DNA from: Verrucomicrobiia bacterium | GTDB lineage: Bacteria > Verrucomicrobiota > Verrucomicrobiia > Limisphaerales > UBA11358 | Length of the DNA: 64,000 nucleotides | NCBI GenBank assembly: GCA_049692125.1 | Contig: JBAVOO010000038.1 | Span: 5,588-69,587 of the forward strand | Direction of reading: 5' to 3' | In this document: one piece after another, positions 825-37,064 of the stretch | Numbering within the stretch: position 1 is the stretch's first letter | How the letters are laid out: each line of letters starts with the position of its first letter | Notes under the pieces: model-generated | What the model was told of the DNA's origin: nothing | The model's input: only the letters and a program-made list of their open reading frames with translations | Database searches by the model: none | Made by a program: the position numbers and the translations under genes

Positions 825-2995
825 ACACGAACGATTATCTGGTCGCCAATTTCAGGGACATTCACGGTTTCGAGGATTTTTACACCCAGAGCCGGCGGGA
901 ATTTTTCAAACGGACAGGCGGCGGCATTCTGGTTTTCATCACCCTGAACGATCTCCTGTTCGGCCAAGAGGAGGCCGGGCGGCCCCGCGGCGGCCGGCCC
1001 GGATTGCCCTCCGACTTCAACGCCTTCCTGCGCATCGACGAGGACGGTCGCGTCACCTGTTTGACCGGTAAAATCGAAATGGGCCAGGGACCGATCACTT
1101 CACTGCCCCAGATGCTGGCCGAGGAACTGGAAACACCACTCGACACCGTGGACATCATCATGGGCGACACTGATCTGTGTCCGTGGGACATGGGCACGTT
1201 CGGTTCGATGACGACTCGCATGTTCGGTCCGGCGCTCCAGGCGGCGGCGGCCGAGGCAAAAGTGGTCCTTTTGGAACTGGCGGCGGATTCACTCAAGGTT
1301 CCGCAAACACAGCTTGTCGCGAAGGACGGCGTCATCTTTGACCCGCAAAACCCCAAAAACCGGCTCACTTATGGACAACTGGCGAAGGGACAAAAAATCG
1401 AGCGGCATCTGCAGACCAAGCCAGCCTTGAAAGATCCCTCCCAGTACAAAATCGCGGGCAAACCGCTTACCCGCCGGGACGGGGAAGCCAAGGTGACAGG
1501 CAAGGCCCAGTACTCGGCCGACATTCGCGTGCCGGGCATGCTTTATGCCAAAATCCTGCGGCCGCCCGCGCACGGCGCCAAATTGAAGAACGTGGACACC
1601 GCACCCGCCAGGGAAATTGCCGGGGCGCAGGTCGTTCAAGACGGCGACCTGGTGGCGGTGTTGCATGAGTCGCCTGATGTGGCGGAGACCGCCCTGGGAA
1701 AAATCAAGGCCGAGTTCGATGTGCCGGAGGCGACCGTGGATGATAAAACAATTTTTGACCATCTGTTGAGCGTCGCGCCCGCGGCGAATGTTTTGAAGCA
1801 GGGGGGCGATCTGGACGAAGGCAAAAAGCTGGCCGCCAAAAAATTCGAGTCAACCTATCTCAACAGCTACGTCGCCCATTCGGCGATGGAAACCCACGCC
1901 GCCCTGGCGCAAATCGAGGGCGACAAAGCCACCGTCTGGGCTTCAACCCAGAACCCCTTTGGCGCCCGCGACCAGATTGCCCAGGCGATTGGGTTTCCCG
2001 CGGAAAAGGTCCGGGTCATCACCCCGTTCGTCGGCGGCGGGTTTGGCGGGAAAACCAACAACGCCGAGGCCGTGGAGGCCGCGCGCCTGGCCAAAGCCGC
2101 CGGCAAGCCGGTACAGGTCATGTGGACCCGCGAGGAGGAATTCTTCTTCGACACCTTCCGTCCCGCGGCCGTCGTCAAAATCAATTCCGGCGTGGAAGCT
2201 TCCGGCAAAATGGCCTTTTGGGATTACGACGTGTTTTTTGCCGGTGACCGGGGCGCCCAGCAATTTTATACCGTGCCGAATCACCGCACCGCCGCGCATG
2301 GTGGCGGCTGGGGCGGGACGAGGGGTTCGCATCCCTTTGCCACCGGCGCCTGGCGCGCGCCGGGCAACAACACCAACACGTTCGCCCGCGAATCGCAAAT
2401 TGACATCATGGCAGCCGGCGCGGGAATGGATCCGGTGGAATTCCGCCTGAACAACCTGGGCGACGCCCGGATGGTTCGCGTGCTCAAAGCCGCCGCGGAG
2501 CACTTCGGGTGGACGCCGGCGAAGGCCACCGGCAAGCGCGGTTACGGCGTGGCGTGCGGCATTGACGCCGGAACCTACGTGGCCGCCATCGCCGAGGTCG
2601 CCGTGAATGCTGCCAAGGGAACCGTGCAGGTCAAACGTGTCGTCTGCGCCCAGGACATGGGCGTCGTCATCAATCCCGAAGGCGCGAAGATCCAGATGGA
2701 AGGCTGCATCACGATGGGTCTGGGCTATGCACTTACGGAAGAGATGCATTTCAAGGGCGGCCGGGTCCTGGACACGAACTACGACACCTACGAAATCCCA
2801 CGGTTCTCCTGGGTGCCGAAAATTGAAACCGTGCTCATTGAGAACAATGAAACCGCGCCGCAGGGCGGCGGCGAACCGGCCATCATCCTGATGGGCGCGC
2901 TGATTGCCAATGCCATCCACGATGCCACCGGCGCCCGGCTGTTCCAGTTGCCCATGACGCCGGACCGGGTCAAGGCCGCGCTTCAGAAGGTCTGA
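821..2995 (+). CDS. Molybdopterin-binding large subunit (IorB / aldehyde dehydrogenase beta-subunit family), probably Tat-exported
   Basis: 724 aa. Twin-arginine motif SRREFFKRTGGG near the N-terminus. XDH-family Mo-domain blocks are present (e.g. PFVGGGFGGK). No FAD subunit is adjacent. Confidence 0.9.
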   Translation: MNTNDYLVANFRDIHGFEDFYTQSRREFFKRTGGGILVFITLNDLLFGQEEAGRPRGGRPGLPSDFNAFLRIDEDGRVTCLTGKIEMGQGPITSLPQMLAEELETPLDTVDIIMGDTDLCPWDMGTFGSMTTRMFGPALQAAAAEAKVVLLELAADSLKVPQTQLVAKDGVIFDPQNPKNRLTYGQLAKGQKIERHLQTKPALKDPSQYKIAGKPLTRRDGEAKVTGKAQYSADIRVPGMLYAKILRPPAHGAKLKNVDTAPAREIAGAQVVQDGDLVAVLHESPDVAETALGKIKAEFDVPEATVDDKTIFDHLLSVAPAANVLKQGGDLDEGKKLAAKKFESTYLNSYVAHSAMETHAALAQIEGDKATVWASTQNPFGARDQIAQAIGFPAEKVRVITPFVGGGFGGKTNNAEAVEAARLAKAAGKPVQVMWTREEEFFFDTFRPAAVVKINSGVEASGKMAFWDYDVFFAGDRGAQQFYTVPNHRTAAHGGGWGGTRGSHPFATGAWRAPGNNTNTFARESQIDIMAAGAGMDPVEFRLNNLGDARMVRVLKAAAEHFGWTPAKATGKRGYGVACGIDAGTYVAAIAEVAVNAAKGTVQVKRVVCAQDMGVVINPEGAKIQMEGCITMGLGYALTEEMHFKGGRVLDTNYDTYEIPRFSWVPKIETVLIENNETAPQGGGEPAIILMGALIANAIHDATGARLFQLPMTPDRVKAALQKV

Positions 2996-3159
2996 GTTAA
3001 AGCGGTTGATTTAATCCACCGCGGATCCGGTTTGACGTGAAGTTCGCGGCCTGGCAGGCGTGTTTCGTCCGTCCGGCCAACCCGTTTCGGCCAAAGGCGG
3101 TGTATTGAACACCGCCCGGGCAAATTAGCGCGGTGCGGCGGGCAAGTCCGGGGACTGTC

Positions 3160-3303
3160 CCCCGTAGCGCAGGTTTCCAAACCTGCTGTATCGCCGATTT
3201 CCAAATCGGCAGCGCACCGAAACTCCTGCGCCCATTGAGCCTTTCCAAGTTCGCGGATTTGGAAATCCGCGACACAGCCGACTTGGAAGTCGGCGCTACG
3301 GGG
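3160..3303. repeat. Family A multi-hairpin palindromic repeat (type copy)
   Basis: Bounded by CCCCGTAGCGC ... GCGCTACGGGG. It contains four short stem-loops: gcaggtttccaaacctgc, gccgatttccaaatcggc, cgcggatttggaaatccgcg, gccgacttggaagtcggc. Related copies lie at 16086, 16708, 21494 and 36277. Confidence 0.8.
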
Positions 3304-3386
3304 GGCAAACTGGTACAGCGGGGCGGTCATATGAAATTTTCGCTATCACCGGGGGTGTTTTCGAGTATCATGCACTCAGTCGTTTT

Positions 3387-6300
3387 ATGGCCGTCGCTTT
3401 ACAATTCATCCTGAACGGCCGGATCGTCAGGGTTGAAAATTGTTCTCCGAACACGACGCTGCTTGAATTCCTGCGTCGCGCCGGCCTGACCGGCGCGAAG
3501 GAAGGTTGCGCCGAGGGCGACTGCGGCGCGTGCGCGGTCGTCATGGTTGACCGTGACGTGCAAGGGCGGCCTTGTTATCGCGCCATCAACAGTTGCCTCG
3601 TGCCGCTCTGCCTGATGGCGGGGCGTGAAATCGTCAGCGTCGAAGGCGTCGCGTCCGGTCAAGGCCTTCATCCCGTGCAGCGGAAAATGGTCGAGTGCCA
3701 CGGGTCCCAATGCGGCTACTGCACGCCGGGGTTCATCATGTCGCTCTTTGAGGGTTATTACCGCGACGACATCCATCAGCACGACGAACTGGACGATCAA
3801 CTCAGCGGCAATCTATGCCGCTGCACCGGCTACCGCCCGATTCGCGACGCAGCCATTGAAGCGTTTTCACTTCGTAGGAGTCGAGGTAACGAGACTCAAA
3901 CTAAAAGCAAAAATGAATTGGAGACTCCTTACGTCGTCTCCTACGGTCAGGATATTTTCGCCAAACGGCTGAAAAAGGCCGGCACCGGGCCGGACGGTGT
4001 CGAGTACGAATTCGGAAATGAGAAATTCTTCCGGCCAACCTCGCTGGTCCGGCTTCTGATGTTGCTTCAGCAGTTTCCCGACGGGCAACTCATCGCCGGG
4101 GCGACGGAACTGGGCCTCGACATCACCAAGCGTTACAAGAAATTCCGGACGCTGATTTCCGTCGAAGCCGTTTCCGAGCTGAATGGCATCCAATCCACTG
4201 AAACCGAATGGCAGATCGGTGCGGCGGCGACGCTGACGCAGATCGAGGAAAAAATGGCGGCAGAATTTCCCGCGCTCGGCGACATGTTGCGCGTGTTCGG
4301 TTCGCGGCTGATTCGCAATCGCGCCACGATGGGCGGCAACCTCGTCACCGCTTCGCCCATTGGCGACAGCGCGCCCGTGCTGCTGGCGTTGGACTCGAAA
4401 GTGGTGCTTGTAGGACAGGCTTCCAGCCTGTCTCCATCTAAAACGGAAAAGTTAGAGACAGGCGCGACGCCTGTCCTCCAGGAGCGCATTTTGCCGATTG
4501 AGCAATTCTTCGTCGCCTACCGCAAAACCGCGCTTCAGCCCGGCGAGATCCTGAAAACCATCATTGTGCCGCGCGGGGTGCCAAAACCGGGACTGGCGCG
4601 TAAATGTTCGTGGTTCAAAGCGTCCAAACGGCGCGAGATGGACATCAGCACGGTGGCCGCCTGCTTCACGGTGGATCTGGACGAACAGAACGTCGTGCGT
4701 TATGCGCGTCTGGCCTACGGGGGCGTGGCGGCGATGCCCGCCCGCGCGAAGAAAACCGAGTCGGCACTGTCCGGCAAAGTCTGGAGCAACGAAACCATTG
4801 CCGGCGTGCTGCCCATTTTGCGGACGGAGTTCAACCCCATCTCCGATGTTCGCGGCTCGGCGGAGTATCGCCGCGGATTGATCACCGGCTTGCTGGAAAA
4901 GTTTTTTCACGATTCGGAGGGGCGAGTTACACGAGTCCTTGACTCAAATGGAATTGATTTGGGGCTCGCAGAGTTCGCCCCTCCGAAACAGTCAAACCGC
5001 CCTCCGCCGCACGAAAGCGGCCACAAGCACGCCACCGGCGAGGCAATCTACACGGATGATTTCGGCGCCCGAAAACAAATGCTCGAAGTCTGGCCGGTGT
5101 GTGCGCCTCATGCTCGCGCGAAAATCTTGAAGCGCGACGCTTCGGCGGCAAAGCAGATGCCGGGAGTCGCCGCGGTTTTGCTGGCGGAAGATGTGCCGGG
5201 GTTGAACGATGTCGGCGCCGTGCGGCGGGACGAAATCCTGCTGGCGGACAAGGAGGTTTTTTATCACGGCCAGATCATTGCGCTGGTTGTCGGCGAAACT
5301 CAGGAAGCCTGCCGCTCCGCCGCGGATAAAATAATTGTCGAATACGAACCGCTGCCGCCCCTTCTGAAAATCGAGGAGGCCATCGCGCACAATAGCTTTC
5401 ACACCGAGCCGAATTTCATCCGGCGCGGCGACGTTCAGGGGGCGTTAAAAAAATCTCCGCAGGTTCTTGATGGGGAATTTTACATGGCCGGGCAGGAACA
5501 TTTTTATCTGGAAATGCAGGCGGCCTGCGCGGAGCCGGGCGAGGATGGCTCGATGTTCGTGATGTCCTCGACGCAGCATCCGTCCGAGGTGCAGCACATC
5601 GTCGCACACCTGTTGCACGTGCCGGTGAATCACGTCGTCGTGCAAAGCCCCCGCATGGGCGGCGGCTTTGGCGGCAAGGAAACGCAGGCTGCCACCTTTG
5701 CCGCGCTGGCGGCGCTGGCGGCGGCGAAAACCAAACACCCCGTGCGCGTGCGCGTGAACCGCGATCTCGACATGATGATTACCGGCAAGCGTCATCCGTT
5801 TCTGGCGAAGTTCAAAGTGGGCTACAATTCCGACGGCGATTTGCTCGCGGCAAAAATCGAATTGATCTCCAACGGCGGCTGGTCCCTCGATTTGTCCGTG
5901 CCGGTGACGGACCGCGCGGTGTTTCATCTGGACAATGCGTATTTTATCCCGGCGGTTGAATTTTCCGGGCAGGTCGCCAAAACCAATCTGGCGTCGAACA
6001 CGGCATTTCGCGGGTTCGGCGGACCGCAAGGCATGCTGGTCATCGAGGAAATTATTGACCGCATTGCGCGGCGGCTCGGCAAAGCGCCGGAGCAAATCCG
6101 CGAGCGGAATCTGTATCGCGGCAATGGCGAAACGAACACGACGCATTACGGACAGGAAATCGAGGACAACCGCATCCAGCGCGTCTGGCACGAATTGAAG
6201 GACAGCACCGGGTTTGAAAAACGTCGGGGGGAAATTGCGAAATGGAATGCGGACCATCCGCATCGCAAGCGCGGACTGGCCATGACGCCGGTGAAATTCG

Positions 6301-7313
6301 GGATTTCGTTTACGATGACGCATTTGAACCAGGCGGGCGCGCTGGTTTTGATTTATCAGGACGGCACGGTGCAGGTGAACCACGGCGCGACGGAAATGGG
6401 CCAGGGGGTTCACACGAACATTGCCATGATTGCGGCCCGGGAGCTTGGAATTTCGTTGGACAACGTTCGCGTCATGCCGACGAGCACGGACAAGGTGCCG
6501 AACACTTCGGCGACAGCCGCGTCGTGCGGCACGGACCTGAACGGGATGGCGGTGAAAAATGCGTGCGAAGTTTTGCGGGCCCGGCTGGCGCCGGTGGCGG
6601 CCAAACTGCTATCCAACGCCAGCGGACGTGAAGTCACGCCGGACAAGGTCGTGTTTGCGGACAATTTTGTTTCCGCCGCTGATGTTGTTTCCGGTGCCGG
6701 ATCGGGAGAGATAAAACTCGCGTTCAAGGAAGTTGTGGTCCCCGCACACATGCAGCGCATCAGCCTGTCTTCCACTGGGTTTTATCGCACGCCGGAAATC
6801 CATTACGACCGCGCAAAGGGCAAGGGCAGACCGTTCCATTATTTCGCGGTCGGCGCGGCAGTCACAGAAGTCGAGGTGGACGGGTTCACGGGCATGACCA
6901 AAATTTTGCGCACGGATATTTTGCACGACGCGGGCGACTCGATTAATCCGGGTATCAATCTTGGCCAGATTGAAGGCGGCTTCGTGCAGGGCGCGGGCTG
7001 GCTGACGTGCGAGGAGTTGGTTTGGAACGACCAGGGCGTTTTGCTGACACACTCGCCGGACACCTACAAAATTCCCGCCGTTGGCGACCGGCCGCTGGAG
7101 TTCAACGTGCAATTCCTCAAGAACGCGACCCAACCCAACACGATTCACGGCAGCAAAGCCGTCGGTGAGCCGCCGTTGATGCTGGCGATTTCCGTGCGCG
7201 AGGCGATCCGCGATGCAGTGGCAGCGTTTGGCTCCGGCCAAGGCGAAATTGCGCTCGCCGTGCCGGCCACCGGTGAGGCGATTTGGATGGCGATTCAGAA
7301 ACAACGAAAATGA
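3387..7313 (+). CDS. xdh: Xanthine dehydrogenase, single polypeptide (2Fe-2S + FAD + molybdopterin domains; XdhA-XdhB fusion)
   Basis: 1308 aa. N-terminal CAEGDCGACAV and CGYCTPGFIMS...CRCTGY FeS motifs; FAD domain (ATMGGNLVTASPIGD); Mo domain (QSPRMGGGFGGKET, GATEMGQG, KAVGEPP). The ORF is continuous. Confidence 0.92.
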   Translation: MAVALQFILNGRIVRVENCSPNTTLLEFLRRAGLTGAKEGCAEGDCGACAVVMVDRDVQGRPCYRAINSCLVPLCLMAGREIVSVEGVASGQGLHPVQRKMVECHGSQCGYCTPGFIMSLFEGYYRDDIHQHDELDDQLSGNLCRCTGYRPIRDAAIEAFSLRRSRGNETQTKSKNELETPYVVSYGQDIFAKRLKKAGTGPDGVEYEFGNEKFFRPTSLVRLLMLLQQFPDGQLIAGATELGLDITKRYKKFRTLISVEAVSELNGIQSTETEWQIGAAATLTQIEEKMAAEFPALGDMLRVFGSRLIRNRATMGGNLVTASPIGDSAPVLLALDSKVVLVGQASSLSPSKTEKLETGATPVLQERILPIEQFFVAYRKTALQPGEILKTIIVPRGVPKPGLARKCSWFKASKRREMDISTVAACFTVDLDEQNVVRYARLAYGGVAAMPARAKKTESALSGKVWSNETIAGVLPILRTEFNPISDVRGSAEYRRGLITGLLEKFFHDSEGRVTRVLDSNGIDLGLAEFAPPKQSNRPPPHESGHKHATGEAIYTDDFGARKQMLEVWPVCAPHARAKILKRDASAAKQMPGVAAVLLAEDVPGLNDVGAVRRDEILLADKEVFYHGQIIALVVGETQEACRSAADKIIVEYEPLPPLLKIEEAIAHNSFHTEPNFIRRGDVQGALKKSPQVLDGEFYMAGQEHFYLEMQAACAEPGEDGSMFVMSSTQHPSEVQHIVAHLLHVPVNHVVVQSPRMGGGFGGKETQAATFAALAALAAAKTKHPVRVRVNRDLDMMITGKRHPFLAKFKVGYNSDGDLLAAKIELISNGGWSLDLSVPVTDRAVFHLDNAYFIPAVEFSGQVAKTNLASNTAFRGFGGPQGMLVIEEIIDRIARRLGKAPEQIRERNLYRGNGETNTTHYGQEIEDNRIQRVWHELKDSTGFEKRRGEIAKWNADHPHRKRGLAMTPVKFGISFTMTHLNQAGALVLIYQDGTVQVNHGATEMGQGVHTNIAMIAARELGISLDNVRVMPTSTDKVPNTSATAASCGTDLNGMAVKNACEVLRARLAPVAAKLLSNASGREVTPDKVVFADNFVSAADVVSGAGSGEIKLAFKEVVVPAHMQRISLSSTGFYRTPEIHYDRAKGKGRPFHYFAVGAAVTEVEVDGFTGMTKILRTDILHDAGDSINPGINLGQIEGGFVQGAGWLTCEELVWNDQGVLLTHSPDTYKIPAVGDRPLEFNVQFLKNATQPNTIHGSKAVGEPPLMLAISVREAIRDAVAAFGSGQGEIALAVPATGEAIWMAIQKQRK
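3874..3944. repeat. Family C palindromic repeat inside xdh (FeS/FAD interdomain region)
   Basis: Termini gtaggagtcgaggtaacgagactc ... gagactccttacgtcgtctcctac. A related copy in opposite orientation lies at 36346-36417. Encodes ...RRSRGNETQTKSKNELETPYVVSY.... Confidence 0.7.
4410..4479. repeat. Family A-like two-hairpin repeat inside the xdh FAD domain
   Basis: Sequence gtaggacaggcttccagcctgtc ... gacaggcgcgacgcctgtcctcc. The caggctttccagcctg-type hairpin resembles the one at 16091. Encodes ...VGQASSLSPSKTEKLETGATPVLQ.... Confidence 0.6.
4916..4984. repeat. Family B repeat (GGAGGGGCGAG ... TTCGCCCCTCC) forming the XdhA/XdhB linker
   Basis: 69 bp. The inverted termini and the internal ggctcgc(a/g)(g/a)g box are shared with the copies at 32665-32770 and 34544-34621. 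Confidence 0.7.
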
Positions 7314-16085: not shown

Positions 16086-16194
16086 GTGGCGCAGGCTTTC
16101 CAGCCTGCGGGTTCTGGGGACTTTCCAATCCCCAGTCTCTGGAACACGGGACAAGAATGTCCCGTGAACCCGCAGACAGGAATGTCTGCGCTAC
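16086..16194. repeat. Family A multi-hairpin repeat
   Basis: GTGGCGC ... GCGCTAC. Hairpins: gcaggctttccagcctgc, ggggactttccaatcccc, cgggacaagaatgtcccg, gcagacaggaatgtctgc. Confidence 0.8.
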
Positions 16195-16217: not shown

Positions 16218-17711
16218 TCATGGATTAGAGGACGCTTTTGCAGACACTTTGGTTCTTTCAGGTTTTGCCGCCGCGGCAATGGCATCAACGATCTGCTGGT
16301 AGCCAGTGCAGCGGCAGAGGTTTCCTGAGATTGCCGTTCGGATTTGTGTTTCGGTCGGATGTGGATTCAGATCCAGCAGTGCTTTTGCGCTCATCAGCAT
16401 TCCCGGGGTGCAGAATCCGCAGTGGACGGCATCGCAGTCCATGAAGGACTCCTGCAAAAGGTGGAGCTTGCCGCGCTGCATGAGTCCCTCCACGGTTAGA
16501 ACGTGTCGCCCGGCGATTTGTGGCGCGAGAACCAGACAGGAGTTCACCGGCTCGCCGTCGAGCAGCACCGTGCACGCCCCACACTCGCCAATCTCGCAAC
16601 CGCTTTTCGTGCCGGTAAAACCGAGCCGGTCACGCAGCAGATCGAGCAACGTCCAATGGGCGGGAATCGCAAGTGTATGGGAGCGCCCGTTGATGGTCGT
16701 GGTAATCGTAGCGCAGACTTCCAAGTCTGCCGTATTGCTGGTTTCTAAACCCGCGAGCCGTTCGACGTGCTCTGGCGTTGCCGATTTGGAAATCGGCGGT
16801 ACAGCAGACCTGGAAGTCTGCGGTACAGCAGGTTTGTCCCGCAAGGCGGGATGCGCTACTGCGGCTTGTTCCAACGCCCGGCGCACCAGCACGGCAATGA
16901 CGGGTTCCTTGTACTCCGACGACCAGCGCCTTCCGGCCTCTTTTATCATTTGCCCGGCAACTTTCTTTCCGGCGGCGGCGAACAGCTTCACCGCCGGCTT
17001 CTCGCCGACGAGCATCGCTTCGGCGTCCGTCACTCGCTTCCACACGGGGAAGACCGAGCCGGGAACGATGCGCGCATCACCGATTCTTCCATCGTCATTC
17101 ATTTGCAGAATGGCGGCAACACTCAGCCGGGAAGTCGAGAGTGCATTGCGGCGGCCGAGCTTGATGAATGCGCTTCGGGCGTTTGCCGGCAGCTTGGAGA
17201 AGCGGACAGCCGTCAGCAGTTCATCCGGTTTCGCCCTGGTTTGATAGGGTTTGAGGAACAGTTCCGCCAGATCCAGCTCGCGGCGCCCGGTCTTCGATTG
17301 CAGGGTCACGATTGCGCCCAGAGCGATCAGGGGCGGGACGGTGTCAGCGCACGTGGCGGCGTTCATGATGTTTCCGCCGATGGTTCCGCGATTTCTGATT
17401 TGCGGTGAACCGATGGTTGAAGCGGCTGAAACGAGGCACGGAGCAAACGTTCGCAATACGTTCGAACGCAGCAACTGGCTGTGCGTCGTAAGCGGCCGGA
17501 TGAGAATGCCGCCGTCGGATTCGATGATGCCGCCCAGTTCGTTCGCGCGGGAGGTGTCGAGAAGAACCTTGGGCGGCTTCGTTGATGGGTGCCGCAACTT
17601 GATCAATAAATCAGTTCCCCCGGCAAGGACAGAAGCATCGGGACCATGCTCGGAAAGGAGGCTGCACGCCTCAGCGATGGTCGCAACCGGGATGTAATCA
17701 AAAGGTTTCAA
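16218..17711 (-). CDS. Fused FAD-binding (CoxM/YgfM-like) and 2Fe-2S (CoxS-like) subunit of a molybdenum hydroxylase
   Basis: The N-terminal part (LKPFDYIPVATIAEA...LAGGTDLL...GTIGGNI) is a FAD subunit. The C-terminal part (INGRSHTL...GTKSGCEIGECGACTV...CGFCTPGM...CRCTGY) is a FeS subunit. The likely TTG start at 17711 overlaps the upstream TGA. The ORF-track start at 17837 lies inside the upstream gene. Confidence 0.85.
   Translation of the reverse strand: MKPFDYIPVATIAEACSLLSEHGPDASVLAGGTDLLIKLRHPSTKPPKVLLDTSRANELGGIIESDGGILIRPLTTHSQLLRSNVLRTFAPCLVSAASTIGSPQIRNRGTIGGNIMNAATCADTVPPLIALGAIVTLQSKTGRRELDLAELFLKPYQTRAKPDELLTAVRFSKLPANARSAFIKLGRRNALSTSRLSVAAILQMNDDGRIGDARIVPGSVFPVWKRVTDAEAMLVGEKPAVKLFAAAGKKVAGQMIKEAGRRWSSEYKEPVIAVLVRRALEQAAVAHPALRDKPAVPQTSRSAVPPISKSATPEHVERLAGLETSNTADLEVCATITTTINGRSHTLAIPAHWTLLDLLRDRLGFTGTKSGCEIGECGACTVLLDGEPVNSCLVLAPQIAGRHVLTVEGLMQRGKLHLLQESFMDCDAVHCGFCTPGMLMSAKALLDLNPHPTETQIRTAISGNLCRCTGYQQIVDAIAAAAKPERTKVSAKASSNP
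16708..16859. repeat. Family A multi-hairpin repeat forming the FAD/FeS linker
   Basis: GTAGCGC ... GCGCTAC. Hairpins: gcagacttccaagtctgc, gccgatttggaaatcggc, gcagacctggaagtctgc, cccgcaaggcggg. Encodes ...HPALRDKPAVPQTSRSAVPPISKSATPEHVERLAGLETSNTADLEVCAT.... Confidence 0.8.
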
Positions 17712-20068
17712 TGCGCACCTCGTCCCAGCTTGCACGAGTCGCCCGCCATCGGGTCCTTCTGGAGCGAGCCGCGCGCGCCTTTCCGCGACAGCTTGTGCCC
17801 CAGCAGCACGCGCTCCAGCGTGGCCGGGATCTCGCAAATGCGTTTGCCGGTCGCGTTGTAGATCGCGTTCACGATGGCCGGCGCAGCGATCTCATTGGTT
17901 GGCTCACCCACCGATTTCGCGCCGAATGGCCCCGCGGCGTCTTCGTTTTCGACGATAATGCCCCGGATCTTCGGAACGTCCAGCGCGGTCGGGATCAGGT
18001 ATTCGTCGAAGTTGAGCTGCTTGGGAACGGCGCCCTCAAAATCGAACTCCTCCAGCAACCCATAGCCGAGTCCCATCGCCACGCCGCCATAAAACTGCCC
18101 GAGCACCGTATTCCGGTTGATCGCTTTCCCAACGTCGTGGCAGGAAACAAAATTGACAACGTTGACCTTGCCGGTTTCGGTGTCCACTTCGACCTCCGCC
18201 ACATTCGCGCCATAGACAAAAGTGAAGTAGGCCTCACCAGTTCCTGCTTTTTCGTGCCAGGAGGCGGGCGGTGCCTTATGCCAGCCAAAGCCATACATCG
18301 GCTTGCCACGGCGGAAGCACTCGGCGGCGACCTCGGCAAACGACGCCATCCGTTTCCCGTTGCTTTTCCTGACGAGGTAATTGTCGGCAAATTCGCACTC
18401 TTGCTGATCAATTTTCAGCATGTTGGATGCAACTCCGAGCAGGGTCGCCCGGACGATTTCCGCCGCTTTCCTGGCCGCCGACCCGCCCATGATCGTTCCC
18501 CGCGAAGCCACGGTCGGTCCCGAGTCCGGTACCCGGCTGGTGTTCGTGTTCAGGAAGCGAATGCGATCCATGGAAACGCCGAGCACTTCGGCAGCGATTT
18601 GCGACATCTGAGTTTGTGCACCCTGTCCCATATCCGTAATGCCGGAGGAAACAATCACGCTGCCGTCAGTCTGCACCGAAACAATCGTCCCCGCGGCGTC
18701 CACACCTTCCGCGCCCAGCGACACGCCGCGGTAGCTGCACGCCAGTCCGATGCCGCGCTTCCGGGGAGCGTCCGCCGCCCGGCGATATTTCCTCCAATTC
18801 GGTTGAAAGTTCGCTGCCGCCGCGGCTTTCGTCAGCACTTCGCTTAAACTCACGTTGTGCGTGAGTCGTTGTCCGGTGGCTGTCACCGCCCCCGACTTGA
18901 AACCGTTCTGTAATCGAATCGCCAGCGGATCTTTTCCGACTTTCTCAGCCAGCTCGTCCATCATCGATTCGATGGCAAAATTCACCTGCGGTGAACCGAA
19001 GCCGCGCATGGCGCCGGTGTAGTTGTTGTTCGTGTAAACGGCGTACACATCGGTTTTCACGTTCTCGCAGCAGTATGGCCCCGTCGCCTGCACCACCGAC
19101 CGCCACGTGACGAACGGACTCATGGAAGCATACGCGCCGCCATCCGCGATGCACCGGACTTCCATGGCCGTAATCGAGCCGTCCTTTTTGGCACCCCACT
19201 TGTAGTAGAGAACATAGGGATGCCGTTTGTACGACTCGAGCATGGACTCCTCGCGGGAGTTGACCATCTTCACCGGTTGGCCGGTCGCGCGGGCCAACAG
19301 CGCGGCGCGGCAACACATCGCCGTCATGACTTCATCTTTTCCGCCGAACGAGCCCCCCAAGGTCGCCTGAATAATCTGAACCTGGTTGAGGTCGAGCTTG
19401 AGCGCGGCCGCAACGGAGCGCCGGCTGGAAAAAAGATTTTGAACGCTGCCGGTGACGATCACTCCGCCGTGCTCATCGGGTTCGGCCAGAACGGCCTCCG
19501 GCTCGAGGTACGAGTGCTCGACAAACTGCGTTTTGAACTTCCGCTCGATGAAGAAATCGGCCCGGGCGAATCCTTTCCCGATGTCTCCTTTGCGCACCTT
19601 GTGATGGACGAACGCGTTTTTGGCGCCGTGGATTCCCGGCGCATTCGCCTTCAGCGCTGCTTCGGGGTCGGAGACGATGGGAAGCGGCTGGTAGTCAACG
19701 TCAATGAGCGAGAGCGCTTGCTCGGCGATTTCTTTCGTGCGCGCCGCGACCAGGGCCACGCCGTCTCCGAGATAGCGGACTTTGTCCACCGCCAGGATTG
19801 CCTGGTTCTTCACCACAATTCCGAAGACCTTTTCGCCGGGAATATCGCGCGCCGTGAGAACCGCTTCGACCCCCGCCAGCCGTCCGGCTTTCGAGGTGTC
19901 GATCCGCAGGATACGCGCATGAGGATGCTTCGAGCGGAGCACTTTCCCGTAGAGTTGGTGGCCGACGGTGTAATCGGCAGCGAACTTTGCCCGTCCGGTC
20001 ACCTTTCCGATGGCATCGACCCGGCGCTCTCCCTTGCCGATGATCCTGGTTTTGCCCCGGCCCTTCAT
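17708..20068 (-). CDS. Molybdopterin-binding subunit of an XDH-family hydroxylase (XdhD/CoxL-like)
   Basis: 786 aa. RVDAIGKVTGRAKFAADY, GGSFGGKDE, TDMGQGAQT and KSVGEPT are hallmark blocks. Confidence 0.92.
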   Translation of the reverse strand: MKGRGKTRIIGKGERRVDAIGKVTGRAKFAADYTVGHQLYGKVLRSKHPHARILRIDTSKAGRLAGVEAVLTARDIPGEKVFGIVVKNQAILAVDKVRYLGDGVALVAARTKEIAEQALSLIDVDYQPLPIVSDPEAALKANAPGIHGAKNAFVHHKVRKGDIGKGFARADFFIERKFKTQFVEHSYLEPEAVLAEPDEHGGVIVTGSVQNLFSSRRSVAAALKLDLNQVQIIQATLGGSFGGKDEVMTAMCCRAALLARATGQPVKMVNSREESMLESYKRHPYVLYYKWGAKKDGSITAMEVRCIADGGAYASMSPFVTWRSVVQATGPYCCENVKTDVYAVYTNNNYTGAMRGFGSPQVNFAIESMMDELAEKVGKDPLAIRLQNGFKSGAVTATGQRLTHNVSLSEVLTKAAAAANFQPNWRKYRRAADAPRKRGIGLACSYRGVSLGAEGVDAAGTIVSVQTDGSVIVSSGITDMGQGAQTQMSQIAAEVLGVSMDRIRFLNTNTSRVPDSGPTVASRGTIMGGSAARKAAEIVRATLLGVASNMLKIDQQECEFADNYLVRKSNGKRMASFAEVAAECFRRGKPMYGFGWHKAPPASWHEKAGTGEAYFTFVYGANVAEVEVDTETGKVNVVNFVSCHDVGKAINRNTVLGQFYGGVAMGLGYGLLEEFDFEGAVPKQLNFDEYLIPTALDVPKIRGIIVENEDAAGPFGAKSVGEPTNEIAAPAIVNAIYNATGKRICEIPATLERVLLGHKLSRKGARGSLQKDPMAGDSCKLGRGAH

Positions 20069-21466: not shown

Positions 21467-21493
21467 ATTCGCAGGACAAACGTCGCGCCTGTC

Positions 21494-21611
21494 GTAGCGC
21501 AGACTTCCAAGTCTGCTGTATCGCGGGTTTCCCAACCCGCAGCCCGCACAACATCGAACGCCCCGCCGATTTGGAAATCGGCGATACAGCAGGTTGGGAA
21601 ACCTGCGCTAC
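21494..21611. repeat. Family A multi-hairpin repeat
   Basis: GTAGCGC ... GCGCTAC. Hairpins: gcagacttccaagtctgc, cgggtttcccaacccg, gccgatttggaaatcggc, gcaggttgggaaacctgc. Confidence 0.8.
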
Positions 21612-21669
21612 GAGCGATTCTATCCGCCGCTCGGGTGTTGATGGACACGCTTTTCATTCTTCCAGTTCG

Positions 21670-35612: not shown

Positions 35613-35657
35613 CGAGTGACACGTGACAGGATTTCGTGTCACCTGTCACCTGTCACA
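35602..35657. repeat. Long imperfect hairpin built from GTGAC(A/C) heptad-like repeats, spanning the xdhC stop to the mocA start
   Basis: Left arm gtgacaagtgacgagtgacacg and right arm gtgtcacctgtcacctgtcac, with about 18/21 pairing. The mocA ATG (35657) follows immediately. Confidence 0.6.
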
Positions 35658-36280
35658 TGCCACCGATTAAGGATCAAACGGTATTGGGCGTGGTCATCCT
35701 TGGCGCGGGCGCGTCGTCGCGGATGGGCCGGCCCAAGCTGCTGCTGCCCTGGCGCGACACCACCATCATCGGCCATTTGCTCAAACAATGGCGCGACCTC
35801 GGCGCGGCGCAAATTGGCATCGTCCTGCGTCCACCAGACGCGCCGCTGGCTGCCGAACTGGACCGGCTGGGTTTTCCGCACGCTGACCGCATTGAAAACC
35901 CGCAACCGGAGCGCGGCATGTTCAGCTCGATTCTCTGTGCAGCAAGCTGGCCCGGCTGGAAGGATGAAATCGCCACCTGGGCCATCGTACTGGGCGACCA
36001 GCCGCATTTGCGTATGGAAATGCTGCGCCAACTGCTGGAATTTCATGGCGCGAACGCCGACGCGGTCTGCCAGCTCGAATTTGACGGGCACGCGCGGCAT
36101 CCGGTTTTGCTGCCGCGCCGGGCATTCAAGGCGCTGAAAGTGTCCCAGGCCGAAACGTTGAAGGATTTTTTGAAACGAACTTCCGTCCGCTGCCTCCGCT
36201 GTTCCGTGGATGAACCCGGTCTGGCGCTGGATCTGGATACGCCGGAGGATTACCAACGGGCAAAGGGTGCCGGCTTGTAG
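35657..36280 (+). CDS. mocA: Molybdenum cofactor cytidylyltransferase (MobA-like NTP transferase, MocA family)
   Basis: VVILGAGASSRMGRPKLLLPW, VLGDQP, GHPVLL-like block and LDLDTPEDY fit MocA/YgfJ. The TAG stop lies inside repeat A5. Confidence 0.85.
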   Translation: MPPIKDQTVLGVVILGAGASSRMGRPKLLLPWRDTTIIGHLLKQWRDLGAAQIGIVLRPPDAPLAAELDRLGFPHADRIENPQPERGMFSSILCAASWPGWKDEIATWAIVLGDQPHLRMEMLRQLLEFHGANADAVCQLEFDGHARHPVLLPRRAFKALKVSQAETLKDFLKRTSVRCLRCSVDEPGLALDLDTPEDYQRAKGAGL

Positions 36281-36329
36281 CGCAGGTTTCCAAACCTGCT
36301 GTATTGCCGACTTACAAGTCGGCAAGGCG
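36277..36329. repeat. Family A repeat, half copy
   Basis: Sequence gtagcgcaggtttccaaacctgctgtattgccgacttacaagtcggc. No matching GCGCTAC end is seen. Confidence 0.75.
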
Positions 36330-37013: not shown

Positions 37014-37064
37014 GTAGTGTCGGCGCTGTGCGCCGATACGTTCGAGCCACAGGCTCGACGCTAC
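37014..37064. repeat. Family A-like degenerate copy
   Basis: gtagtg tcggcgctgtgcgccga tacgt tcgagccacaggctcga cgctac. Confidence 0.4.

Follow-up and report, generated by a model that had tools for sequence, protein, structure and literature searches.

A dispersed four-hairpin repeat of Verrucomicrobiota is probably a GTAG-tagged, REPIN-like element moved by a cognate RAYT transposase

The window considered here, that is, the whole stretch of 64 kb of DNA that was analysed, carries palindromic repeats both between and within its genes (Table 1). The element at 3164-3299 separates two co-directional molybdopterin-enzyme genes (821-2995 and 3387-7313), and the one at 21494-21611 lies between the stop codon of an M20 peptidase gene (21670) and the start of a PALP enzyme gene (21466), both of which are on the minus strand. 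Another element, at 16086-16194, occupies the spacer between a fused FAD/Fer2 gene and a carbamoyltransferase gene, and that at 16708-16859 lies in the linker joining the FAD_binding_5/CO_deh_flav_C half to the Fer2/Fer2_2 half within one fused minus-strand gene. The hairpin pair at 4410-4479 falls within the FAD domain of a fused xanthine-dehydrogenase-like gene, and the stop codon of a MobA-like gene (35636-36280) is the TAG (36278-36280) contained in the GTAG head of the half copy at 36277-36323.

Table 1. Palindromic elements of the window, with strand and distinguishing features
Feature	Coordinates	Strand	Stems and remarks
Full family A element	3164-3299		Stems GCAGGT, GCCGAT, then inverted GCGGAT, GCCGAC
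GTAG-headed hairpin pair, other sub-family	4410-4479	+	GACAGGCT-TCC-AGCCTGTC ... GACAGGCG-CGA-CGCCTGTC
Variant element	16086-16194		GTGGCGC...GCGCTAC, four hairpins, same build as family A
Family A element with an extra, disrupted unit	16708-16859	-	In frame inside ORF 16218-17837
Canonical 118-bp family A element	21494-21611		GCAGAC, GCGGGT / GCCGAT, GCAGGT
Left half of a family A element	36277-36323	+	Units GCAGGT, GCCGAC; second loop TTACAA
Inverted hairpin pair, GTAG...CTAC brackets	37014-37064		TCGGCGC-TGT-GCGCCGA / TCGAGCC-ACA-GGCTCGA

A first-pass annotation had listed seven copies of a single repeat, family A, at these positions. Three of them (3164, 16708 and 21494) hold full copies, 36277 a half copy and 16086 a variant, which is the tally for the 64 kb, while 4410 and 37014 had to be reassigned to other GTAG families; the pair at 37014-37064 represents another REPIN-type family, distinct from family A. 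The GTAGCGC...GCGCTAC brackets ascribed to all copies do not extend to 16086-16194, the loops of which comprise 4 nt and are of the TTCC, TTCT and GGAA types. The repeat itself is real. In the window, GTAGCGC occurs 15 times against 4.6 expected, a count reached in none of 100 shuffles, GTAG-headed perfect hairpins number 12 against 1.9 in shuffled sequence, and whole elements fold at z = -7 to -8 relative to shuffles; all nine perfect stems around TCCA or TGGA in the window fall inside copies that the first-pass annotation had named. When the window was searched against Rfam 15, only tRNA reached the gathering score, and the element matched long-hairpin miRNA models below threshold only (39.7 bits against 200). 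A CRISPR-like array was considered as well and rejected, the arms having just two units and no unique spacers.

The unit of family A consists of a GTA(G/T)C head followed by an 18-nt palindrome, GCnnnnTTCCAAnnnnGC, and repeats with a strict period of 24 nt. In a canonical element, of about 118 bp, a spacer separates two units from two inverted ones; the four stems differ and follow the preferred order GCAGAC, GCGGGT, then GCCGAT, GCAGGT across the spacer. Among the matches listed from the database scan described below, the full ++-- architecture with 24-nt spacing within the arms was found in 66 of 157 unit clusters, and the length of the spacer varies by assembly, being about 24, 60 or 125-150 nt. 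The copy at 3164-3299 illustrates this build: its left arm reads GTAGC-GCAGGTTTCCAAACCTGC-T-GTATC-GCCGATTTCCAAATCGGC, the spacer measures 42 nt, the right arm reads CGCGGATTTGGAAATCCGCG-ACACA-GCCGACTTGGAAGTCGGC-GCTAC, and the four hairpins are perfect, with stems of 7-9 bp and TCCA or TGGA loops. In what had been described as a TTCCAA loop, the TT pairs with the AA, so that the stem of the actual hairpin comprises 7 bp and its loop is TCCA. The fold of the whole element is mixed, being partly one long hairpin in which the outer arms pair across rather than four independent hairpins. A GTAG-type tetranucleotide stands directly at the 5' foot of a short, perfect palindrome, and the arms are inverted, as in the definition of GTAG-tagged REPs, and the inverted pairing of units around a short spacer yields a REP doublet able to form a hairpin, the arrangement that characterizes REPINs.

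For a survey of the distribution of the family, one genome per prokaryotic species was scanned with the pattern GTAGCGCNNNNTTCCAANNNNGCNGTAT, which leaves the first stem free and the second unit unspecified. At least 120 stretches in 42 assemblies were matched, one of which (L055) looks like a chance match, leaving about 41 assemblies, and single assemblies carry at least 10-15 such stretches. Among the matches listed, almost all assemblies are labelled Verrucomicrobiota, Limisphaerales or subdivision 3. A few are labelled Bifidobacterium, Sulfotelmatobacter or Acidoferrum (L003, L005, L012, L014, L113 and others); because they share 67-80% nucleotide synteny with verrucomicrobial loci, these labels look wrong and are read as errors of the submitters rather than as spread across phyla. 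Among 2.9 million viral contigs of IMG/VR only two (L205 and L206) match the pattern, so that carriage by phages is not supported.

The freedom left by the pattern allows pairing to be assessed in unit 1, the stems of which were not specified, and in unit 2, which was wholly unconstrained. Among the matches listed, 144 of 155 unit 1 stems are fully complementary and represent at least nine types, mostly AGGT/ACCT (73) and AGAC/GTCT (48), followed by AGGC/GCCT (9), AGAT/ATCT (6) and rarer ones. In unit 2 of the same matches, all seven pairs are Watson-Crick in 112 of 154 stems, and the remaining cases mostly reflect 1-nt indels in the loop with folding retained; here pair 3 is G-C in 62, C-G in 61 and A-T in 15 stems, pair 5 is G-C in 73 and A-T in 58, and pair 6 is T-A in 112 and C-G in 17. 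At the four variable stem positions, 87% of pairs are formed in register, a figure that falls to 24-53% after displacing the partner by 1-2 nt and to 58% (2.31 of 4) after shuffling partners. The early observation that the stems differ and yet stay complementary is borne out by these counts, and the excess of pairing behind the proposed compensatory variation is genuine. The stem versions are, however, few and discrete and sit at preferred positions of the composite, and most of the stem diversity reflects four paralogous hairpin modules that are copied together rather than many independent compensatory events.

The view of the loops requires a similar adjustment. The loop is not the most conserved part of the element: in individual copies, loop differences amount to 8.8% per nucleotide against 2.3% of non-paired stem pairs. 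Within the loop, T-C-N-A, T1 and C2 hardly vary and position 3 varies freely. Separately, the commonest loop change in unit 2 (131 arms from L001-L120) is from C to T at the third loop base, which accounts for 19 of 46 loop differences and could reflect deamination of an unpaired hairpin cytosine or simply the free position.

Nucleoid proteins, gyrase and IHF-like proteins have been reported to bind the BIMEs of E. coli, and palindrome arrays such as these might likewise be double-stranded sites for a dimeric host protein of this kind, with the loop as the centre of the site. Each unit is indeed a nearly perfect 18-bp palindrome with a conserved centre, and the 24-nt spacing is regular. The centre is, however, asymmetric (CC versus GG) and the orientation of the units within elements is strictly ordered as ++--; the half-sites vary freely provided that they remain paired, which is more consistent with a hairpin than with a fixed dimer site, and no candidate protein is linked to the elements. 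We therefore consider such a host-protein site very unlikely.

The genomic context of the elements bears on whether they serve the host as RNA. By crude GC3-based gene calls around 64 canonical elements, 30 lie in co-directional, 10 in convergent and 4 in divergent spacers, and 5 are intragenic; a preference for co-directional and convergent spacers is likewise reported for REPs in Di Nocera 2013 (PMC3733652). Most copies would therefore be transcribed, and the RNA of the element folds strongly (-70 kcal/mol, z = -7), as would be expected if the host retained the elements for signals in structured RNA (stabilisers of the 3' end, sites of processing or operon attenuators) with the stems selected as RNA; secondary roles of this kind are described for REPs in PMC3733652. 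All four oriented copies of the window also face the same way relative to transcription. This strandedness, which the first-pass annotation had proposed to examine, did not hold up in the larger sample, in which the ratio was 16:9 over 25 scorable loci, not a significant bias, so that a strong transcription-strand bias was rejected. Nor is a T-run found after the elements at 3164-3299, 16708-16859 and 21494-21611 on either strand, and a reading of the elements as intrinsic terminators was rejected on this ground. G-T wobbles, moreover, account for just 5 of 21 broken stem pairs, some copies lie in frame inside genes, and the orthologous spacers of relatives are either empty or occupied by unrelated palindromes. 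Maintenance as an RNA signal thus appears unlikely.

A comparison of spacers shows that the elements are present at an orthologous site in some relatives and absent in others. The spacer between the FAD/Fer2 and carbamoyltransferase genes measures 21 nt and is empty in L203; at this place L204 has a canonical family A element and the window has the 16086-16194 variant. The M20-PALP spacer (21467-21669 in the window) is occupied by family A in the window and by another GTAG palindrome in L201, and an element present in L100 is absent from the counterpart in L034. The palindrome in the M20-PALP spacer of L201 (4950-5025) reads GTAGGGCGCGTCA...TGACGCGCCCTAC. The same spacers seem to be colonised more than once, by different REP families. 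Six near-identical strain contigs with an identical FAD/Fer2 protein showed no polymorphism at the 16086 copy, and no recent movement was caught among them; in an all-against-all BLAST of the loci, filled and empty pairs were diverged (about 80% nucleotide identity) and gave no base-exact ends or target motif. Two further observations concern the FAD/Fer2-carbamoyltransferase region. Five short-read Logan contigs of the window's strain (L210-L214) terminate inside the 16086-16194 element, and in L201 (11497-15548) a RhuM-like gene and a McrBC restriction pair are inserted, relative to the window, between the FAD/Fer2 and carbamoyltransferase genes, in the very spacer where the window has its REP variant.

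A presence/absence pattern between relatives, together with long imperfect inverted arms around a short variable core, would also be expected of a MITE, in which the arms of about 47 bp would be terminal inverted repeats read as double-stranded DNA by a DDE transposase. Direct target-site repeats are nonetheless absent at the three full copies of the window, at 3164-3299, 16708-16859 and 21494-21611, the flanks of which are cccc/gggg, ctgtc/gagcg and aatc/tgcg, respectively. The sole DDE element seen adjoining family A is an IS5-like insertion into it, not its parent, and the genes found between or beside the arms encode Y1 transposases; an origin as a MITE is accordingly extremely unlikely. 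The IS5-like element in question (1.37 kb, DDE_Tnp_1 and DUF772, ends AGCCTTTTGCAAAA...TTTTGCAAAAGGCT) was observed in three insertions, at 3662-5028 in L029 and, in tandem, at 4519-5884 and 5883-7249 in L050, each at CTGCTG/CAGCAG at the foot of an outer family A hairpin, and it looks like an insertion sequence that targets the family A REP.

The in-frame copy at 16708-16859 adds a different perspective, as it encodes about 50 linker residues (...AVAHPALRDKPAVPQTSRSAVPPISKSATPEHVERLAGLETSNTADLEVCAT...) in the flavoprotein/2Fe-2S subunit of a molybdenum hydroxylase. Among the candidates scored, 7682 proteins at E <= 1e-20 share the FAD/Fer2 fusion, with lengths of 466-542 and a hypervariable linker; the fusion is old and common. 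The linker of an 86%-identical homologue is devoid of repeat peptides, a 90%-identical homologue lacks exactly eight residues, corresponding to one 24-nt unit, and more distant homologues carry REP-derived AVSPTSKSA / AGLETCAT peptides in the linker. Since the linker exists without the repeat, or is one unit shorter, in homologues, the repeat has colonised a pre-existing linker, and the 24-nt period keeps the gain and loss of units in frame.

The first-pass annotation had also pointed to a RAYT as the possible agent of the repeat, and this lead proved correct in related genomes and metagenomes. A tblastn search for a RAYT in the 64-kb window gave none, and a motif search was carried out on six-frame translations of the loci from the matches listed. 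It yielded a single HUH...Y gene, in L113 (246 aa, 2628-3368), the product of which matches Pfam Y1_Tnp (PF01797) at 27.6 bits against a cut-off of 23 and has E. coli TnpA-REP (4ER8) as its best and only PDB match, with the HUH (NHVH) and Tyr (YIRNNP) motifs aligned. On the NCBIfam model REP_Tyr_transpos (NF047646, cut-off 80), which covers these proteins of about 240 aa from about residue 122 onward and leaves residues 1-120 largely outside, the L113 protein scores 77.8 bits, below the cut-off, and the related proteins of L130 and L148 score 90.7 and 85.2 bits. A Y1 HUH enzyme with a RAYT-type profile is thus encoded in relatives of the window's genome.

In L113 the RAYT gene sits between two complete family A elements (2452-2569 and 3366-3501), and its TAG stop codon (3366-3368) is the TAG of the downstream GTAG head. 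The stop codon lies inside the GTAG head likewise in L215 (2239-2241) and L216 (2221-2223), so that gene ends and element heads overlap both at the MobA-like gene of the window and at the RAYT gene of several lineages. With the L113 RAYT as the query, 80 homologues were retrieved with their metagenomic loci, and 33 of them are flanked at fixed offsets, upstream and downstream alike, by family A units no farther than 400 nt away. These doubly flanked loci are nearly all of the homologues at 62% identity or more, and only 27 family A units lie elsewhere in the RAYT loci; GTAG-headed hairpins of some loop class accompany almost all 80 homologues. At some loci a half element upstream is combined with a full element downstream. 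Dispersed family A copies and a RAYT of the TTCCAA clade described below coexist in the same assembly in DATMRF (L012, L018 and L091 with L113), DASTXC and DATJTK. RAYT genes flanked by REPs of a dispersed family, the configuration termed a REPtron, are therefore present in relatives, a linkage that maintenance as host RNA signals would leave unexplained.

Long-read assemblies (L215-L219), which come from the project that also produced the window, reveal arrays of elements around the RAYT gene, at 1270-2750 in L215 and 2220-2450 in L216-L219, in which either whole elements (111-nt period) or the outer unit alone (27-nt period) are repeated in tandem. Arrays of the 111-nt type comprise two elements upstream and five or more downstream of the RAYT gene, and the 27-nt arrays have three or four copies in otherwise near-identical loci of different assemblies. 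Two of these loci, L217 and L218, both from ERZ25039509, encode an identical RAYT protein and are identical in DNA over locus positions 1254-2232, with different gene neighbourhoods, and the RAYT gene of L218 is bracketed by a direct repeat of about 50 nt together with an element; this suggests either that the whole REPtron has been copied or that one assembly contains two strains. A protein database search retrieved 2131 RAYT relatives at E <= 1e-40, many of which bear the JGI name "REP element-mobilizing transposase RayT". Because the repeat breaks short-read assemblies, most of these database entries lie on contigs of just 1-2 kb.

The elements that flank more distant RAYT homologues have the same build, with GTAGC or GTATC heads and the outer stems GCAGAC and GCAGGT, and differ in their loops, which are TTCCA, TGGCA or TTGCA/TTGTA; the GCAGAC and GCAGGT stems thus recur with TTCCAA, TTCCA and TGGCA loops. 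When the loop class of the flanking hairpins was mapped onto a maximum likelihood tree of 77 RAYTs, 10 loop-class changes were required, compared with 35 for shuffled labels, and none of 200 shuffles gave a number as low. The tree contains a TTCCAA clade (n=27, support 100/98) and a TGGCA clade (n=11, support 100/97). As the flanking elements are physically linked to the gene, this clustering is partly simple co-inheritance and does not by itself prove recognition. More informative is that all hairpins of one locus share their loop class despite differing stems, and that from clade to clade the loops switch together. Selection on a folded nucleic acid or on a loop-recognising protein, as put forward in the first-pass annotation, is supported by the adjacency of RAYT genes, by the way in which loop class follows RAYT clade and by published enzymology.

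This enzymology concerns the perfect-palindrome REPs of Stenotrophomonas maltophilia and Marinomonas MWYL1, which combine a perfect stem, a short loop and GTAG and are processed by group 3 TnpA-REP (Corneloup 2021, PMC8266576). By SELEX and mutagenesis, GTAG and the loop are essential, the critical loop bases being G13 in S. maltophilia and T12, T13 and A15, not position 14, in Marinomonas; the Marinomonas SELEX indicates that the RAYT depends on three bases of the loop and on a stem that is perfect, almost irrespective of its sequence, and swapping a stem to its complement matters little, whereas a single stem mismatch kills cleavage (PMC8266576). The Marinomonas loop T-T-N-A (PMC8266576) and the family A loop T-C-N-A have the same free position. 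The verrucomicrobial RAYTs, of about 240 aa, are enzymes predicted from sequence.

Taken together, these data make it very probable that family A is a GTAG-tagged REP family in the form of a four-hairpin, REPIN-like composite, a non-autonomous mobile element moved by a cognate RAYT. On single-stranded DNA, each 18-nt palindrome, lying immediately 3' of its GTA(G/T)C head, would form a hairpin of 7 bp with TCCA as the loop, and the cognate HUH/Y1 transposase (RAYT, or TnpA-REP) would recognise head and loop from their sequence and the stem from its shape. By cleaving and rejoining the strand, the RAYT would allow the element to spread into intergenic spacers and also, with the reading frame preserved, into flexible linkers. 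A copy could be mobilised anew only if its hairpins were intact and its loop and head correct, which would account for complementary stems of several kinds around a common loop. That the RAYT binds and moves family A elements is inferred from the gene's position and from analogy with characterized enzymes, and a RAYT is presumably encoded by the window's own genome. The selection involved would most simply act on the transposability of the element itself and not necessarily on a function for the host.

Among known systems, the closest are the GTAG-tagged REPs and REPtrons (Nunvar 2010, PMC2817692; Di Nocera 2013, PMC3733652). As in family A, their short perfect palindromes are preceded by a 5' GTAG head, stems of one family vary in a complementary fashion, and units are grouped head to tail or head to head; these REPs likewise lie between co-directional or convergent genes, with some copies in frame inside genes, and flank the RAYT gene that belongs to them. 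Stems that change in a compensatory manner, units in groups, copies within genes and a case from Verrucomicrobiota, in Opitutus terrae, have already been published (PMC3733652). The Opitutus terrae family, GTAG-20, in which GTGG heads predominate, may be identical to family A. Family A differs in having two tandem units per arm, a strict 24-nt period, four ordered stems and the TTCCAA loop, and it occurs in at least 41 species-level assemblies; by contrast, many of the 24 GTAG families described in PMC3733652 do not extend beyond one species, genus or order. Judged by sequence, the defining features of GTAG-tagged REPs and REPtrons that can be assessed in this way appear to be present in family A, the cognate RAYT being seen only in relatives.

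A second relevant class comprises IS200/IS605 elements and their miniature derivatives (PATEs), which likewise rely on a Y1 HUH transposase and on sub-terminal hairpins read on single-stranded DNA, make no target duplication and give rise to short derivatives made of two ends. The RAYTs associated with family A are distinguished from these by scores of 78-91 bits on the RAYT model against 18-27 bits on the IS200 model, and the ends of the elements are GTAG-headed REPs. The REPINs of Pseudomonas fluorescens, reportedly described by Bertels and Rainey in 2011 as REP doublets that form hairpins and are mobilised by RAYTs, resemble family A in that two inverted REP-bearing arms and a short spacer constitute the replicating unit, the RAYT is flanked by the same sequence, and the copies are dispersed between genes. 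In family A, by contrast, each arm is a pair of REPs and the arms carry different stems, as a consequence of which the long hairpin is imperfect and local hairpins compete with it.

Family A stands out by its two-plus-two composite of hairpins, in which the four stems are ordered, by its breadth in Verrucomicrobiota and by the concerted loop switches between RAYT clades. We propose tentatively, as a reading with a somewhat less than even chance of being right, that the loop (T-C-N-A within TTCCAA) is a specificity code for the RAYT, that in sister clades the 4-8 flanking hairpins have all changed their loops together while the GTAGC heads and the stem set were kept, and that the stem order is selected. 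If so, the TTCCAA, TTCCA, TGGCA and TTGCA loops would form a natural series of enzyme/substrate specificity switches, the ordered four stems would be selected for local hairpin folding or for telling the left end from the right, and this REPIN lineage, found in many species-level assemblies, would have an age and a breadth unusual for its kind.

Family A belongs to a known class, and no new class of system is revealed. For genome annotation, this assignment explains a conspicuous repeat in uncultured soil and peat Verrucomicrobiota, one that annotators need to recognise, as it inflates the number of spurious ORFs, lengthens enzymes by peptide segments and disrupts short-read assembly. The many RAYT/REP pairs in which heads and stems are constant and loops differ by clade provide a test bed for the choice of substrate by RAYTs.
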